IMG/VR virus record: IMGVR_UViG_3300010429_000409
Span: 1-64,000 of that record
DNA length: 64,000 nt
Source: a virus
Taxonomy: Duplodnaviria; Caudoviricetes
Direction: 5' to 3' (one strand)
Below are positions 15,199-23,430 of the stretch, piece after piece (the first letter of the stretch is position 1; every line of letters starts with the position of its first letter). The translations under genes were made by a program, and so were the position numbers. Under the pieces are notes generated by a model that saw nothing but the letters and a program-made list of their open reading frames with translations, was not told the origin of the DNA and did not search any database.

Positions 15199-15384
15199 CT
15201 ATGCGAAAACCATACCGTTTCAATTCAAACCACGCACCTCCGTGTAACAATTACAAATTTGCGATTTCATGCCATGTGCACCAGAATCAAAATTGTAACC
15301 TTTTTTCGTACCATTTTTGGTTGAAATCAATCTTTTCAAACACTTCAAACCAGGAAAAGTTTTCCGTGACCCAGAAATCTTTTC
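15199..15384 (-). promoter_or_regulatory. AT-rich upstream element, copy A (before the vWA gene)
   Basis: Boxes of 31 bp (15199-15229), 29 bp (15288-15316), 16 bp (15350-15365) and 13 bp (15372-15384) are identical to boxes in 16670-16869. Confidence 0.7.
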
Positions 15385-15394
15385 CTGGTTTGAA
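15344..15394 (-). terminator. 16-bp perfect hairpin just downstream of the AAA+ gene
   Basis: TTCAAACCAGGAAAAG (15344-15359) pairs with CTTTTCCTGGTTTGAA (15379-15394); 6 nt after the stop; weak U-tract. Confidence 0.55.
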
Positions 15395-15400
15395 CCCATC

Positions 15401-16633
15401 TCAGTTCCCGAAGTAACGCTGGATGAGGCTGGCCACAAACGCCTTGTCATCCTTGGACATTCTGTTGAGCACCGCTCCGGATGCCGCCTTGGACACTGCC
15501 TTGGCTGCGCCGTTGATTTCCTGGGCACCGAACCACACTGCCTGCTGCGCCCACGCCAACAGGCGCCGGGTGCTGAAGGTGGTGTAGCACTGCTCATTGG
15601 CAGCTGCCCTGCGAACCTCGTTGGCCACGGACACCATCTTGCGAGCCATCTCAGCCCTGATGCCGGTCTTGCGAGTGAGGATGCGCGTCTCAACATCCAC
15701 GTCAGGGTAGCTGGTCTCAAGCACCACTCCAAACCTGTCCAAGAATGCCTCGTTGAGGCTGTTGGTTCCCTGATACATGCCGGAATCGTCGCCCCGCCCC
15801 TTGGTGTTAGCAGTGGCCAGGATGCGGAAGTTGGGGTGCGCCTTGACCACCTCGCCACCGTTGCCGGTCAGGACCAACTTGGCGCCAGTGGTGCTGCGCT
15901 CCAACACAGCCTGGAGCACAAACAGAATCTGGGCCGGAGCCGCATCCAGCTCATCGATCAGCAGCCAGTGGCCGCGCCGCATGGCAGTCGGAAGAATGCC
16001 ATCCACCCAGCGGGTCACCGACTGGCCCGAGGTCTCATCCACATCCACCACCTTCTCACCCACGAAATCCGCCTTGCGAACATCCCCATCCATGTTGATG
16101 CGCTGAACCGGCTGGTTGAGCAGCGAGGCCAGCTGGAGCACGCTGGAGGTTTTGCCGTTGCCGGTGGGCCCGACCCAGAGCAGATTCTGCCTGGAGTCGA
16201 TGGCCAGCGCCATCAGTTCCCAGGCTTCCTTCATGGTGTCGGACATCTCCCAGCCGTCATCGAACGCAGGGACATAGGGCTGATCCAAGAATGGATCCAA
16301 CTCCGCCTTTTCCCTCTGAGCGAGTTGGGCCCGACCCACAGTGAACACCTTGGAAGTGGTGGTCACGGAGGCTCCGCTGGCCTTGTCCACACCGATGGTC
16401 ATCTGGGGAGCCTTGGGGGTGGTGGGCTTCCGATTGAGCTGACCATCGCTGGCCCTCTTTTTGGCGTACTCTGAGAGGATGGGCGCCCCGGGGTATTGGG
16501 CCTTGTAGTCAGCCACCTTCATGCTGTGCTCGTGGCTGATGTGGATCTCCAAGCGGTGGAAGTGCTGCCCACAGACTTCACACTTGACCTTCTTGTTCCC
16601 GCTCCGGTCTGTGTCGCTCCAGGAACCGCTCAT
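15401..16633 (-). CDS. CobS/CbbQ/NirQ-like MoxR AAA+ ATPase with N-terminal C2H2 zinc finger
   Basis: CEVCG...HISHEH...YKAQYP; Walker A GPTGNGKT; Walker B LLIDELD; ATANTKG; NEAFLDRF; STRRL. Confidence 0.9.
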   Translation of the reverse strand: MSGSWSDTDRSGNKKVKCEVCGQHFHRLEIHISHEHSMKVADYKAQYPGAPILSEYAKKRASDGQLNRKPTTPKAPQMTIGVDKASGASVTTTSKVFTVGRAQLAQREKAELDPFLDQPYVPAFDDGWEMSDTMKEAWELMALAIDSRQNLLWVGPTGNGKTSSVLQLASLLNQPVQRINMDGDVRKADFVGEKVVDVDETSGQSVTRWVDGILPTAMRRGHWLLIDELDAAPAQILFVLQAVLERSTTGAKLVLTGNGGEVVKAHPNFRILATANTKGRGDDSGMYQGTNSLNEAFLDRFGVVLETSYPDVDVETRILTRKTGIRAEMARKMVSVANEVRRAAANEQCYTTFSTRRLLAWAQQAVWFGAQEINGAAKAVSKAASGAVLNRMSKDDKAFVASLIQRYFGN

Positions 16634-16669
16634 TTTCAACCTCCAGAGTTTGAATACCTGTTCCTGGTT

Positions 16670-16870
16670 CTATGCGAAAACCATACCGTTTCAATTCAAA
16701 AACACTATCCACCAAAGCCCATTACAATTTTGCCAGAATTGGTCATCTCGCCAATCAGCCAAAATTGTAACCTTTTTTCGTACCATTTGAGGACAATTTC
16801 AATTATCCAATTGAATTTGTTTCCATATTCATGAACAGAAATCTTTTCGTACACCAGGAAAAGTTTTCCT
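16670..16870 (-). promoter_or_regulatory. AT-rich upstream element, copy B (before the AAA+ gene)
   Basis: Boxes at 16670-16700, 16760-16788, 16836-16848 and 16854-16869 match copy A; includes the palindrome AGGAAAAGTTTTCCT. Confidence 0.7.
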
Positions 16871-19359: not shown

Positions 19360-20075
19360 GGTTTGTAGCCCATGTCTTTGTTCATGCGCCCGCGCAACTG
19401 CTCACGGAAGTCGCCTGGTTCCATCGTGATGATTCTGTATTTCCCCACAAAAATGGAAGTCAAAGTTGAACCATACAGCGCCTCCAGGGTTTTCATGTTG
19501 GCATTGGCTGCCACGAGGGTCGGAAGCGAATTGTCAAACCGCTCTTTGAGCACCCGTTCCAGCGACAACCGCATGTAGTTGTCCCCGGCCTTGGTCCGCT
19601 CCTTGGCCAGCTCATCAATGACCACAAAGTCGGAGGTCAACATGTAGTTCAGCCTTTCAGCATCCTCCGGCGAGTCAAATGAACGCTTGACCTGCCAATC
19701 AAACTTTGGCATTGATGTGTAGTACGCTGTGAACCCCTGCTCGATGGCCTGGACCAGAACATAGCACAGGAACATGGTTTTGCCCACCCCGTTGTCGCCC
19801 AACAACATCAGCCCATAGCCCTTGGCCCGCGCCCTCCTCAGCTGCTGTGTGTAGGGCAAGATGGACTCGTTGAACACGTCTGTATTGTGTTGCACCTGTT
19901 CCGTGGACACTCCCCAAAAGTCCTTTGGGATGCACGCTTCATACATCGCCACACGTCGGGCCAACCTAGCACGGCACCCGCACGCTGTATCCTTGCCGCC
20001 ACAAGCAGAGCACCTGAACACGATGTCGTGTTTGGACTGGGCTGTGAATTCAGCAACTTCAGCCTCTGTTCTCAT
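19356..20075 (-). CDS. DnaC/IstB-like ATPase (helicase loader)
   Basis: N-terminal CSAC...CGC, GDNGVGKT, VVIDELAKE, ERF...PT; ATG overlaps the upstream stop. Confidence 0.85.
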   Translation of the reverse strand: MRTEAEVAEFTAQSKHDIVFRCSACGGKDTACGCRARLARRVAMYEACIPKDFWGVSTEQVQHNTDVFNESILPYTQQLRRARAKGYGLMLLGDNGVGKTMFLCYVLVQAIEQGFTAYYTSMPKFDWQVKRSFDSPEDAERLNYMLTSDFVVIDELAKERTKAGDNYMRLSLERVLKERFDNSLPTLVAANANMKTLEALYGSTLTSIFVGKYRIITMEPGDFREQLRGRMNKDMGYKP

Positions 20076-21289
20076 TGCGCCTCCGCCTTGGAAAACAGAT
20101 TGGCAACCGCCCAATCAACCAATGGTTTCATCTTGGAGCTGATGAACATGTCGATTCCCCTGGAGATTGTTTCAGCTGCGAATTGGATTGTCAGCAGGCT
20201 CCGGTCGTCATATCGTTGAACGTCAAGGCCAGCCTCCATCAAACCCCTCCGGAGCCTCGGGTCAAGGGTTGACCTTGATGTCCCGAGGTGTTCCATGGAT
20301 TCCTTGGTTGTTCCCCTCTGGAACGCATTGCTGTTGAAGTGCCCATCTTTGAATGCAGACAGCGAGGCCACAGCCTTGTCCACGTTTTGCGGCGAGGCCA
20401 GGAAGGCCATGGTTGGATAGTCCATGTCTGTGAAATCGCTCATGTGGTGGTCCCAGTAGTCTATGAGGTCAGTGGGCGTGATCCCTTTCATGATACAGAG
20501 CACACCCGCTTGGGCCACAAACCGTTCCTCTTGCGGGTGCATCTTGTACCATCTGTCTTTGCTGAACCTGTATCGGCTGTATATTCGCATGAACTCTGAT
20601 TTGATTTTGGCAACCAGCTTCTGGCGTTCCCGGTCAACGGCCCGCTTCTGGAGCACCTCAATCTGCCTCGGGCGCTCCTTGGATTTTGGGTCAAAGCTGA
20701 TTGTTGGCTTCAACCCTGTCTTGTCTGGTTGCAGTTCTTTCCAATTGAAAGGCTTGGGCGGAATCTTTGGCTTGGATTTGTGCTTGCGTTTTTGGGCGAG
20801 GTTCTGTTTGTGCTTGGTGATGGCTTGCTTGAGCTTTGGATTTGCCTTCTTGATCGGCTGGACGGCAGGTGCACCCACTTCCGGGATGGCTGATGGTTCA
20901 GCATCAGCTGTGTGTGTGTGCAGATGCCTGTCGCTTCGCTTCAGGCATCGTGATCCTGCTCCTGCTCCTGTTTCTGTTTCTGAACTCGTTTCTGTCTTAA
21001 TTCTTAAAGCAGTTCCTTCGGAACTGCATGCACAGCCTTCTGAATTTGAATCTTCCAGGGCAGCAAACGGGTCTGAAAGTGACAACCACTTGTGGCGAAT
21101 CTTGGGTGTTTCCGCTGAACTTTTCACTTTTTTCTTGCTAAACCTGTTCAAGATGGCCCCATCTTTTGCATTCAGATGTGTGGATTCCTGGTGGCCATCG
21201 TTACAATTCACAGTAAAGTTGGAAAGATTGGAGTCATTTTCTGCATTCAGTTGTGTTCTTTTCGCTCCGCTCTTTTCAAACTCGGCCAT
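20072..21289 (-). CDS. hypothetical protein, putative replication initiator
   Basis: Directly upstream of DnaC/DnaB; low-complexity TETSSETET and Lys-rich linker followed by a helical C-domain; GGAGG RBS. Function is inferred from position only. Confidence 0.5.
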   Translation of the reverse strand: MAEFEKSGAKRTQLNAENDSNLSNFTVNCNDGHQESTHLNAKDGAILNRFSKKKVKSSAETPKIRHKWLSLSDPFAALEDSNSEGCACSSEGTALRIKTETSSETETGAGAGSRCLKRSDRHLHTHTADAEPSAIPEVGAPAVQPIKKANPKLKQAITKHKQNLAQKRKHKSKPKIPPKPFNWKELQPDKTGLKPTISFDPKSKERPRQIEVLQKRAVDRERQKLVAKIKSEFMRIYSRYRFSKDRWYKMHPQEERFVAQAGVLCIMKGITPTDLIDYWDHHMSDFTDMDYPTMAFLASPQNVDKAVASLSAFKDGHFNSNAFQRGTTKESMEHLGTSRSTLDPRLRRGLMEAGLDVQRYDDRSLLTIQFAAETISRGIDMFISSKMKPLVDWAVANLFSKAEAQ

Positions 21290-21318
21290 CGGCGCCCTCC
21301 AAAGCCTCGCTGAATGGA

Positions 21319-21807
21319 CTATTCTTTCACATCACTGGTTGGGGAATCCTGGTTGACACGGTGCCCCGCCCTCCAATGCTGCTCGCCCGTGTTTCGATTC
21401 ACATGGTCCGGCATCTTTGGTGCCAGTTCCAAAAATGGGCAATCGCTGCAGTGGCGGTCCAAACCATCCCTGGGCTTGCTCAGCTTCATGATGCGATCAA
21501 ACCCTTCAAGCACACACAACTTCTTGAGCCCGAATTTGGTCAGACTCCTGCCAGGTCCGGAGCCGTTCTTGACAGCGCCCGGAGTGACATCCACATACTG
21601 CTTCAGGCGCAACTCCTGGATGATGTAGCCCATCCTCCCCTCGCTGAACCCCACATTCTTGGCGAACACGGCCCGGCCCACCATGTCGTCATCATCCAGG
21701 GTGTGCATGATGATCCAGACGGAAAAGGCTGAAGGGCTCAGTTCCCGATACGCCTGGGCAATGGGCACCCCGACCACACCGGAATGGGCATTTTCAACTT
21801 TCAACAT
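21319..21807 (-). CDS. winged-HTH-like DNA-binding protein
   Basis: ELSPSAFSVW...FAKNVGFSEGRMGYIIQELRLKQYV pattern; GGAG RBS 9 nt before the ATG at 21807. Confidence 0.6.
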   Translation of the reverse strand: MLKVENAHSGVVGVPIAQAYRELSPSAFSVWIIMHTLDDDDMVGRAVFAKNVGFSEGRMGYIIQELRLKQYVDVTPGAVKNGSGPGRSLTKFGLKKLCVLEGFDRIMKLSKPRDGLDRHCSDCPFLELAPKMPDHVNRNTGEQHWRAGHRVNQDSPTSDVKE

Positions 21808-21820
21808 TTTTGTAATCTCC

Positions 21821-21956
21821 AAAAAAAGAGACACGCTGGCTGGTTGACCACGAGGTAGATCAGGGACAGAATTGCCCCTGGATTCAAACTCTTGGAACCA
21901 GCGTGCCTCAAACTGTATCTGAAAAGGTCTTTCAATTCACACCTCGTGTCAACCAG
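21821..21956 (-). ncRNA. structured 5' leader / candidate attenuator RNA
   Basis: 16-bp closing stem (21840-21856 with 21941-21956), a crossing 12-bp helix (21828-21839 with 21898-21909) followed by U7, and internal hairpins at 21861-21880 and 21920-21934. Confidence 0.55.
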
Positions 21957-21962
21957 GCATCG

Positions 21963-21991
21963 ACGGTAGCCGATCTCACCTCTGAAGTCAA
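21963..21991 (-). promoter_or_regulatory. sigma70-like promoter TTGACT-N17-TACCGT
   Basis: -35 at 21986-21991, -10 at 21963-21968, exact 17-nt spacer; the predicted start falls at the 5' end of the structured leader. Confidence 0.55.
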
Positions 21992-21999
21992 GTGAAATT

Positions 22000-23430
22000 T
22001 TATCCACCATCGGAGTCCATCAGCTTCACAACGAAAGCAGGCTCACTGCGATACACATCCAGGCGTTCCAGCGAGTGCTCCGCAAGGTATGAGTTGGTGT
22101 GATCAATGAAGTCGATGAACACCGCAACATCCTTGCCTTCAAATGGCGTCAGGTTCCGGAACCGTTGGACGGTGGCTTTGACATCCCGGCCTCCGCCTGC
22201 GTTGATGACCGTGTCCACCTCCGGGATGTCCACGCCTTCCCCGAACACTGTGCCCAACAACACTGCCACCCGACCTTCGACAAAGTCAGCAACCCTTTCC
22301 TTCCTGGTTGTTGATTTCGTGTTGCCCACCAACGCCCGGTAGGTCACACCGGAAGCCTCCAAGCCACGGGACAACTCGTCAACCTGGTCCAGCCGGTTGG
22401 TGACAATGAGCACTCGCCTTCCATTGGCCACCAACTGCCGCGCTTGGCGGAGGATGATGCCGTTGCGATGTTGGTTCATCCCGATTCCTCGGGCCACCAT
22501 GGTCTTGGACCACCCGAGGTGGGAAAGGTCAGGCTCATAGACAGGGATCAATCTGATCTCCGGCCGGACCAGGTAGCCAGCTTCAATCAAGTCGCTGGTT
22601 GAAATGTCAATCCGGATTGGTCCGCAGCATGCCTTGAACCAGATGGCCCCGCGCTCCACCTCATTCTTGTCATCAAGGTACACGGTGGCTGACAATCCAA
22701 CCCTGTATGGGGATTCCAAATCCATCAGGACTGCTCGCCATTCCTCGCCCCGAAGGTGGTGGCACTCATCAAAAATGGCCAGTGGATACCGCGTCAGCAG
22801 CGCCTTGTATTCTGGCGCCTTGGCCTTCCTCCGGCCTGTCAAGGTCTGAATCGAGGCCACGGTGACATCTTCCTCTTGCCACTCTTGGTCACCAATGATG
22901 CCTATTGGCCGCAGGAGCAATTCCTTCAGCGCAGCCTGGGTCTGATACAGCAACATCTGGGAGGTCACCAGGAAGATGGCCCGATGCCTCATCTGGTGGA
23001 TGATACGCCCGGCAACCCGAGTCTTGCCACTTCTGGTCGGCATCTTGATGATTCCCAAGCACCGGATGGGCTTGGAGTTCACAACGCTGTCCACAGCCTG
23101 GTCTTGATAGCCTCGCTGCGTCCGATCTGTGTTCCAGTCATATTCGATGTTGCCTTTGGGCCTCGGAACCTGAATCAGCCGGTAGGGTTCCCCCAGCTGC
23201 TCCAACTGGCTCACAATATCATCAATCATTCCGATGGGCGCTCTGAACTGCCTGGTCTTGCTGTTGATGGTGATGAGCCTTTCCCGGCCATCCCAGCGGT
23301 GGTTCTTGAAAGATGGGGTGAAGTGGGCGCCTCTGACATAGTATGATGCCGCACGGCTCAAGGCATTCATTGCCTTCCGGGAAGCACCGAGGATGAGGAT
23401 GTGTCTGTATCCGACCTGTAGAGTCACCAT
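22000..23430 (-). CDS. superfamily 2 DEAD/DEAH helicase (UvsW-like)
   Basis: QRGYQ, MPTRSGKT, IFDECHH, GLSAT, GEGVDIP and QRFR. Confidence 0.92.
   Translation of the reverse strand: MVTLQVGYRHILILGASRKAMNALSRAASYYVRGAHFTPSFKNHRWDGRERLITINSKTRQFRAPIGMIDDIVSQLEQLGEPYRLIQVPRPKGNIEYDWNTDRTQRGYQDQAVDSVVNSKPIRCLGIIKMPTRSGKTRVAGRIIHQMRHRAIFLVTSQMLLYQTQAALKELLLRPIGIIGDQEWQEEDVTVASIQTLTGRRKAKAPEYKALLTRYPLAIFDECHHLRGEEWRAVLMDLESPYRVGLSATVYLDDKNEVERGAIWFKACCGPIRIDISTSDLIEAGYLVRPEIRLIPVYEPDLSHLGWSKTMVARGIGMNQHRNGIILRQARQLVANGRRVLIVTNRLDQVDELSRGLEASGVTYRALVGNTKSTTRKERVADFVEGRVAVLLGTVFGEGVDIPEVDTVINAGGGRDVKATVQRFRNLTPFEGKDVAVFIDFIDHTNSYLAEHSLERLDVYRSEPAFVVKLMDSDGG

Follow-up and report, generated by a model that had tools for sequence, protein, structure and literature searches.

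The DNA analyzed here (the window, 64,000 nt) comprises the first 64 kb of a 94.5-kb (94,539 nt) IMG/VR record of an uncultured phage. Nearly all genes between 1 and 65 kb of the record reside on the minus strand. Two of them, a gene coding for an SF2/UvsW-like helicase (22000..23430, minus strand), used as the synteny anchor in the comparisons with relatives, and a gene coding for a 162-aa winged-helix protein (21322..21807, minus strand), whose N-terminus aligns with its homologues, are separated by a gap of 193 nt occupied by a structured leader. In the 3' direction from the leader, the 162-aa winged-helix gene is followed by the genes of a 405-aa protein, a DnaC-like loader, a DnaB-like helicase, and a primase.

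The profile matches of the winged helix-turn-helix are weak (MarR, TrmB, HTH_36, and DnaD_N; phrog_186, “DnaD-like”, E = 0.003), and word-indexed searches with the single 162-aa and 405-aa proteins returned nothing but the query itself. A tblastn search of the loci bearing helicase homologues, which number in the hundreds, revealed homologues of both proteins (25–40% identity) situated directly 3' of the helicase. In many relatives, the 162-aa and 405-aa proteins represent the N- and C-terminal halves of one protein of ~470–550 aa (corresponding to window positions 20075-21807, minus strand; relatives L006, L012, L014, L019, L022, L175, L178, and L183), and the winged helix-turn-helix at the N-terminus of the 162-aa protein is homologous to the N-terminal part of these ~500-aa proteins. 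The two “orphan” genes behind the leader were thus shown to be halves of a conserved initiator-like protein. Judging by the sequence, the product of the 162-aa gene is a putative replication initiator or organizer; since the winged helix-turn-helix is located at the N-terminus of the downstream protein, the leader would precede such an initiator or organizer.

Several of the helicase homologues are 670–825 aa long because they harbor inserted Hint/intein domains (PF07591, PF14890), as in P0022, P0047, P0094, P0099, P0100, P0111, P0112, P0117, and the helicase of L183 (2501-4873); the window copy is devoid of the intein. In L178, an 80-aa gene with an Acb2/Tad1-hairpin domain (a family of anti-CBASS/Thoeris sponges) lies just upstream of the helicase gene (2067-2309); no equivalent Acb2/Tad1 Pfam match was found in the small genes upstream of the window helicase. 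A search for tRNA and tmRNA genes returned none.

Anatomy of the leader and its two crossing helices

All elements of the leader are described here as read on the minus strand. A −35-like hexamer, TTGACT (21991-21986), begins 9 nt past the stop codon of the helicase gene and is followed, after a 17-nt spacer, by a −10-like hexamer, TACCGT (21968-21963). The latter matches the consensus at three of six positions (T1, A2, and T6 are kept) and is weak by itself, and the pair was not listed by the promoter scan; the call is supported by the conservation of its position and spacing in the relatives (see below). The first-pass annotation of this DNA had proposed exactly this promoter and a leader of about 135 nt behind it, and both are found where it placed them.

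The predicted 5' end of the transcript approximately coincides with the 5' strand of a long helix, designated helix A (A5', 21956-21941; a candidate antiterminator or pseudoknot strand), which pairs with A3' (21856-21840) over 16 bp with one bulged G. The 5' strand of the second long helix, helix B (B5', 21909-21898), constitutes the lower stem of a terminator-like rod together with B3' (21839-21828); this helix comprises 12 bp with one G-U pair and can be extended to 14 bp. Two smaller hairpins, H1 (21934-21920; 6 bp including one G-U) and H2 (21880-21861; 8 bp, closed by a tetraloop), complete the structure. When helix B is formed, its interior becomes a continuous 82-nt rod with a 4-nt apical loop, H2 serving as the tip of the rod and A3' contributing a weak mid-stem and a 6-nt bulge on the 3' side. 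The strands are ordered A5'-B5'-A3'-B3', i.e., the two long helices cross, as had been claimed from the letters alone, and an inverted-repeat search recovered each of them independently; their base-pair counts, the bulge, the G-U pair, and the two hairpins also agree with the original description.

B3' adjoins a U7 tract (21827-21821), one of only four T runs of at least 7 nt on both strands of the 94.5-kb genome. Immediately thereafter come the GGAG Shine–Dalgarno sequence (21820-21817), a 9-nt spacer, and the AUG of the 162-aa gene (21807-21805); the GGAG directly behind the U tract was another part of the initial reading that was borne out. The distance from U7 to AUG is only 13 nt, includes the ribosome-binding site (RBS), and leaves no room for a promoter. 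The signal of an intrinsic terminator is present: a stem of 12–14 bp ends at 21828 and U7 is next to it. The strands of helix B are 58 nt apart, and the combination of helix B with U7 was not listed by the terminator scan. Canonical hairpin-plus-U terminators are almost absent from the genome as a whole (94,539 nt).

The leader is folded far more tightly than expected by chance. RNAfold yielded −58.3 kcal/mol for a 166-nt segment vs. −43.1 ± 3.8 kcal/mol for 200 shuffled sequences (z = −4.0), none of the 200 being as good. The individual helices were compared with dinucleotide shuffles: helix A reached −32.2 vs. −13.3 ± 2.6 (p = 0.001), and the 14 nt directly 5' of U7 found a 14-bp partner at −29.1 vs. 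−11.7 ± 2.3 (p = 5e-4). Compact-helix tests were employed for this purpose, RNAduplex with free internal loops being too permissive as a null. For the whole gap, the z-score was −4.2 for the sense and −2.0 for the antisense strand; among the 12 gaps folded, the sense strand was the more structured one in eight, including seven of the nine with a sense z ≤ −2.

The inverted repeats could, in principle, operate as DNA, either as a replication origin (a cruciform or an unwinding site) or as binding sites for the winged-helix protein, the gene of which, coding for the putative initiator, lies directly downstream. The 9-mer CTGGTTGAC seemingly speaks for this possibility, being present three times within 600 bp (21349-21357 on the plus strand, 21840-21848 on the plus strand, and 21948-21956 on the minus strand). 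These copies lie on either side of the 162-aa gene, two of them form the outer half of helix A, and the genome contains seven copies vs. about 0.7 expected. The excess of CTGGTTGAC may be compositional, however, since its 7-mer core is over-represented genome-wide. Neither iterons or tandem repeats nor a local AT-rich trough or skew switch were found at the locus. The better folding of the sense strand (also seen in L178, L006, and L019), together with the G-U pairs in H1, B, and H2, argues for a minus-strand RNA rather than a DNA cruciform, and the U run, placed at a constant site with respect to the RBS, is a feature of one strand only, so a role as a DNA element appears highly improbable. 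As candidate leader motifs, CGATG and CTGGTTG (48 genome copies of the latter vs. 11.5 expected) were rejected because both are over-represented genome-wide.

An open frame of 69 codons (21801..22010, minus strand) spans the whole leader, its AUG overlapping the helicase stop codon and its UGA overlapping the next AUG. Such an arrangement resembles the leader translation known as the IncI/IncB repY-repZ style, where ribosomes would melt the rod and be handed over to the initiator AUG, either in the 69-codon frame from 22010 or in a frame of 44 codons from a UUG located after GAGG. In L007 and L006, short frames also end in AUGA at the start codon, and most related leaders have a short frame ending near the start codon (none in L175). 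Still, the codon score of the 69-codon frame is 0.04 vs. 0.55 ± 0.19 for genes, its GC3 is 0.53 vs. 0.70, and no gene caller called it, the frame being skipped in the four contigs carrying the identical leader. The related leaders share no peptide; most of them have stops in every frame, as is the case for all three frames of L175 and L178. Coding by the 69-codon frame was rejected on these grounds (codon score, GC3, and stops in the relatives), as were conserved short upstream ORFs, since the short frames of the relatives are devoid of a Shine–Dalgarno sequence and are as frequent as chance gives. Control through translation of the leader is, therefore, improbable. The locus is supported as a promoter-proximal leader that is structured, does not code for protein, and precedes the replication genes; a structured leader at this place had also been described in the first-pass annotation.

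Related leaders: a common layout with different sequences

The synteny of helicase, gap, and winged-helix gene is conserved in the relatives. At the leader site, most of them have a gap of 120–270 nt with a leader of 110–190 nt, and in a few the gap is missing. The comparison covered 11 distinct syntenic gaps; the nine with a terminal hairpin, along with a close variant (L184), were analyzed as leaders. The nine leader types are represented by the window, L022, L175, L178, L183, L181, L006, L007, and L008, whereas L184 is a near relative of L175. A pair of −35/−10-like hexamers with 17–18 nt spacing, located 10–35 nt past the helicase stop codon, is present in eight of 12 related gaps, often with an A/T-rich stretch upstream.

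Every leader type ends in a rod hairpin of 60–83 nt a few nucleotides before the RBS. In five of the nine types, which are the leaders of lower GC content, the rod is followed by a U run (U7 in the window, L175, and L178; U8 in L022; U5AU in L183). The remaining four are high-GC leaders: there is no U run in L006 and L007, and L008 and L181 possess only a weak one.

In the relatives, helix A has its counterpart in the pairing of an upstream stretch with the bulge or loop on the 3' side of the rod, and the strands are again ordered A5'-B5'-A3'-B3'. This complementarity was significant in five of eight relatives under at least one of three test rules. It was strongest in L181 (13 bp, p ≤ 0.001) and L007 (11 bp, p = 0.001–0.003) and depended on the test rule in L022 (8 bp; p = 0.002 under the bulge rule or 0.30), L006 (7 bp; p = 0.02 or 0.10), and L175 (7–8 bp; p = 0.019 or not significant); in L178, L008, and L183, the pairing was not significant. 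Fisher combination under rule 1 gave p = 4e-5 for seven leaders including the window, and the rule-1 p-values of the six relatives recombined by hand gave about 0.002. In four of seven leaders, A3' and B3' adjoin each other with a junction of 0 nt.

The common layout was also captured by covariance models. A model built from the window rod as a single sequence placed five of its six top matches exactly on syntenic leaders (108 kb searched). Conversely, a model built from those five relatives, with the window left out, recognized the window leader as the one strong match in 64 kb (33.6 bits, E = 2.2e-5), the next match in the window having E = 1.6; L184 was found as well. The conserved positions of the model are the stem pairs, the U run, and the RBS. 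In the alignment of six sequences, all 18 modeled pairs change on both sides, and 98% of the cells are paired vs. 62% in shuffles and about 40% with slid partners. As this alignment was fitted to the structure, these figures indicate that a hairpin is kept at the site and do not prove column-level homology. Covariation among homologous leaders, named at the outset as a check of the structure, was obtained in part: true column-by-column covariation is limited to L175 and L184 (~85% identical), the only truly alignable pair, where helix B contains one compensatory change from C-G to G-C and one change from G-U to G-C. The alignment of the window with L022 by MAFFT mis-registers the helices and was excluded from the pair counts.

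The same pair of leaders displays an uneven distribution of changes. A block of 45 nt at the 5' end of the transcript (the region 3985-4030 of L175), which contains A5' and a mini-frame of four codons (AUG...UGA), is 100% conserved, and divergence is seen in the rod and in the U run (U7 vs. UUAUUCU). This suggests, at the level of sequence, that the 5' part of these two leaders is under sequence-specific constraint.

Database searches did not connect the leader with any catalogued RNA. Rfam 15 gave no match on the leader at E ≤ 10 for window positions 21000-23000 or on the leaders of eight related loci at E ≤ 1, in line with the first impression that no known family fits. A blastn comparison of the 2-kb region with 50,697 phage records and an exact-pattern scan of IMG/VR for the B3'-U7 word were both negative. 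Four other contigs contain the leader with 100% identity and are, for this reason, uninformative on its conservation. The closest helicase relative (70% identity) is syntenic with a gap of 214 nt, and another relative has a gap of 284 nt; the leader set compared here comprises neither of these gaps. Metagenome contigs and GTDB genomes yielded no relative closer than 44% identity, no prophage, and no host.

A riboswitch, one of the options offered initially, is not supported: the window and its eight relatives share the architecture and almost no sequence, with no conserved core nucleotides, helix sequences that all differ, and no Rfam match. Since the relatives retain the two-fold design with different sequences, the element qualifies as a real regulatory RNA; on comparative sequence evidence, the leader is a real, conserved cis-regulatory RNA not catalogued in Rfam. 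That the functional entity is an RNA of the sense strand can be stated with high confidence.

Putative attenuation of the replication genes

The reading preferred here is that the leader acts in cis as a transcription attenuator for the replication block; its probability is put at about 0.5. Its layout, i.e., a terminator-like helix, a U tract, and a competing helix crossing the former, had been likened to that of an attenuator from the beginning, and the relatives lend support to this view. According to the proposed model, transcripts would start at the local promoter and, probably, also arrive by read-through from the helicase gene. Each of them would then meet the long rod with helix B at its base and H2 at its tip, ending exactly at U7. 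As U7 directly abuts the RBS and no promoter fits in between, the replication genes could be expressed only by read-through, and the leader probably meters transcription into them. A3' is made before B3', so helix A would form first and, during passage of the polymerase over the U tract, would lock the RNA in a conformation other than the terminator. Any weakening of helix A, e.g., by a factor bound to A5', slower elongation, or strand exchange, would let the rod zip up and stop transcription.

The energetics of the two folds in the window are compatible with such a switch. From the predicted 5' end, the nested folds with A or B forced amount to −54.8 vs. −55.3 kcal/mol, respectively; over the full gap, the A fold has −69.5 and the B fold −68.6 kcal/mol. 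When growing prefixes were folded with 12 nt hidden in the polymerase, all 16 pairs of helix A were present in the minimum free energy (MFE) structure with RNA polymerase (RNAP) at U7, and helix B won only once RNAP was at least 12 nt past U7. With A in place when the polymerase is on U7 and the rod winning later, helix A is read as a kinetic antiterminator, and termination at U7, lowered by helix A, is what the model infers. A transient A helix also occurs in the prefix MFE structures of L022, L175, L178, L181, and L007. In the relatives, the nested A fold is 6–22 kcal/mol weaker than the rod, and thus A can at most delay the rod there. The kinetic antiterminator would, accordingly to the modeled energies, be strong in the window phage and weaker in its kin.

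In the window, the A fold additionally frees the 3' half of B3', which pairs with the region of the GGAG RBS across the U run (21809-21835, minus strand; ~8 bp). In this case, the RBS would be hidden in the read-through conformer and accessible in the rod conformer. A 4-bp version of this pairing exists in L175 and none in the other relatives, so it is not conserved.

The main rival of the attenuator, clearly less probable and likewise derived from modeled folds, is a 5' UTR in which helices A and B exist together as a long-range pseudoknot with A3' stacked coaxially into B3'. Such a knotted UTR would govern how the mRNA of the initiator gene is translated, how stable it is, or how it is processed (RNase III-type cleavage of the rod) instead of termination, and the U run would be a single-stranded landing site for the ribosome. 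In nested folding, helix A excludes the rod, as it uses the 3' side of the rod middle; B5' stays free in the A fold, and A shares no bases with the lower stem of B. Because A and B share almost no nucleotides (none between the two helices proper), their coexistence in a pseudoknot is possible, and A need not prevent termination. The rough sum of −44.0 kcal/mol (A formed, B strands free) and −22.0 kcal/mol (B duplex) minus a knot penalty falls within a few kcal/mol of either nested fold. In the relatives, A3' coincides with the bulge or loop on the 3' side of the rod, which suits coexistence, as does the 0-nt junction between A3' and B3' mentioned above; moreover, L006 and L007 keep the rod and the A pairing without the U run, and the end of the rod is always 4–10 nt from the RBS. 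On the other hand, five lineages display a GC-rich stem with U7 or U8 directly behind it, the canonical signal of an intrinsic terminator, for which non-termination is hard to envisage, and the loop in L181 is barely long enough to span the stacked helices (17 nt for 33 bp).

A simpler explanation posits a plain small-RNA gene or a constitutive partial terminator, where a stable RNA of ~135 nt would be produced and helix A would form without switching. The module from promoter to terminator has a fitting length (~135 nt), its fold is strongly stable, it is the sole element of its kind in the 64-kb window, and canonical terminators are otherwise rare in the genome. But the RBS of the next gene starts right after U7, making read-through obligatory for the replication genes; the position before the initiator gene is conserved in all relatives having the element; and the relatives without U runs would yield no discrete small RNA. 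This explanation is, hence, considered unlikely.

Several known systems help to place the attenuator proposed here. The attenuators of the plasmid rep genes pT181 repC, pIP501 repR, and that of pAMbeta1 are driven by countertranscripts: antisense RNA is the defining effector of the pT181/pIP501 systems, and the preemptor helix shares the 5' strand of the terminator (I:III vs. III:IV). As in these plasmids, the phage leader precedes an initiator gene (putative in the phage), the terminator with its U run is immediately 5' of the RBS, and an upstream strand engages in long-range pairing formed before the terminator. The differences are that helix A takes the 3' side of the rod middle and that there is no conserved antisense promoter. 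Control by an antisense RNA had also been among the original suggestions: a plus-strand RNA starting near 21879 would pair with A5', H1, and B5' and decide the fate of the terminator. A plus-strand promoter-like sequence, TTGACC-N17-CAGAAT (21844..21872), is indeed located inside the leader, and the terminator just 5' of the replication-gene RBS is reminiscent of pT181 and pIP501. This site has no conserved equivalent, however: antisense promoters were absent from L175, L006, L007, and L008 and occurred at unrelated places in the others. In most leaders, the sense strand is the better folded of the two, and copy-number control would be of no evident use to a lytic phage, so that a countertranscript is hardly to be expected as the effector.

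In ColIb-P9 (repY-repZ, IncI-alpha/IncB), a pseudoknot in the rep mRNA acts on translation and requires a leader peptide and the antisense Inc RNA. The phage leader is similar to it in the long-range pairing of an upstream element with a sequence by the RBS in front of the (putative) initiator gene but different in that neither a translated leader peptide nor an antisense RNA is supported. In phage lambda, the terminator tR1 before cII-O-P is Rho-dependent and is overcome by the antitermination complex of the N protein with RNA at nut. Here, the similarity consists in a terminator ahead of the phage replication genes, the expression of which needs read-through, whereas no nut-like boxes or N-like gene were identified in the window phage.

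The closest analogy in terms of logic appears to be the zipper-type attenuator cATT of plasmid pLS20, alongside the resemblance to the attenuators of the plasmid rep leaders. In cATT, the first gene of a large operon is preceded by a long leader that has an intrinsic terminator close to this gene; the antiterminator is a long-range helix built around a structured domain in the center, is formed by default, and is isoenergetic with the terminator fold, and there is no known effector (PMC13401043). The phage leader has in common with it the length, the terminator before the first gene, the long-range competitor helix, the near-equal energies of the folds, and the competitor forming first, as computed here. 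In contrast to pLS20, the 5' strand of the phage terminator is inside the domain closed by helix A, and the helices cross; the type of replicon and the downstream genes also differ, and there is no sequence relation. [quoted passage not shown]

In its architecture, the leader departs in a new way from a familiar type of control, and it is placed at a decisive step in the life cycle of the phage. The timing and dosing of replication genes in lytic phages are known for few models, mostly via protein antiterminators. In the present case, an entire clade of uncultured phages of ~100 kb has its replication block situated behind a conserved RNA gate. If the leader is an attenuator, it would provide a phage example of a terminator crossed by a competitor helix without a shared 5' strand, a compact and portable two-state RNA part, and a marker of the start of the replication operon for the annotation of metagenomic phages. 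A bolder possibility, advanced tentatively, is that these leaders constitute an undescribed class of phage RNA in which a true long-range pseudoknot or a switch, formed by a 5' segment with the bulge or loop on the 3' side of the rod, is read by a phage or host factor; the candidate readers would be the winged-helix initiator regulating itself and the elongation state of the polymerase. Were this so, the commitment to DNA replication would be set by RNA folding.

Two minor observations concern the genome at large. Its “direct terminal repeat” is only 42 nt long and more likely reflects overlapping assembly ends of a genome that is circular or permuted. In addition, the boxes ...CATACCGTTTCAA... 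and ...AATTGTAACC, followed by T5–7, occur as a repeated pair in at least five intergenic spots on both strands (about 15290-15310 and 16690-16780 in the window; 70150-70190, 73240, and 85830-85960 of the genome, outside the window). Owing to this recurrence, the duplicated cassette that had been noticed at 15199-16870 in the first pass is recognized as a genome-wide regulatory motif.
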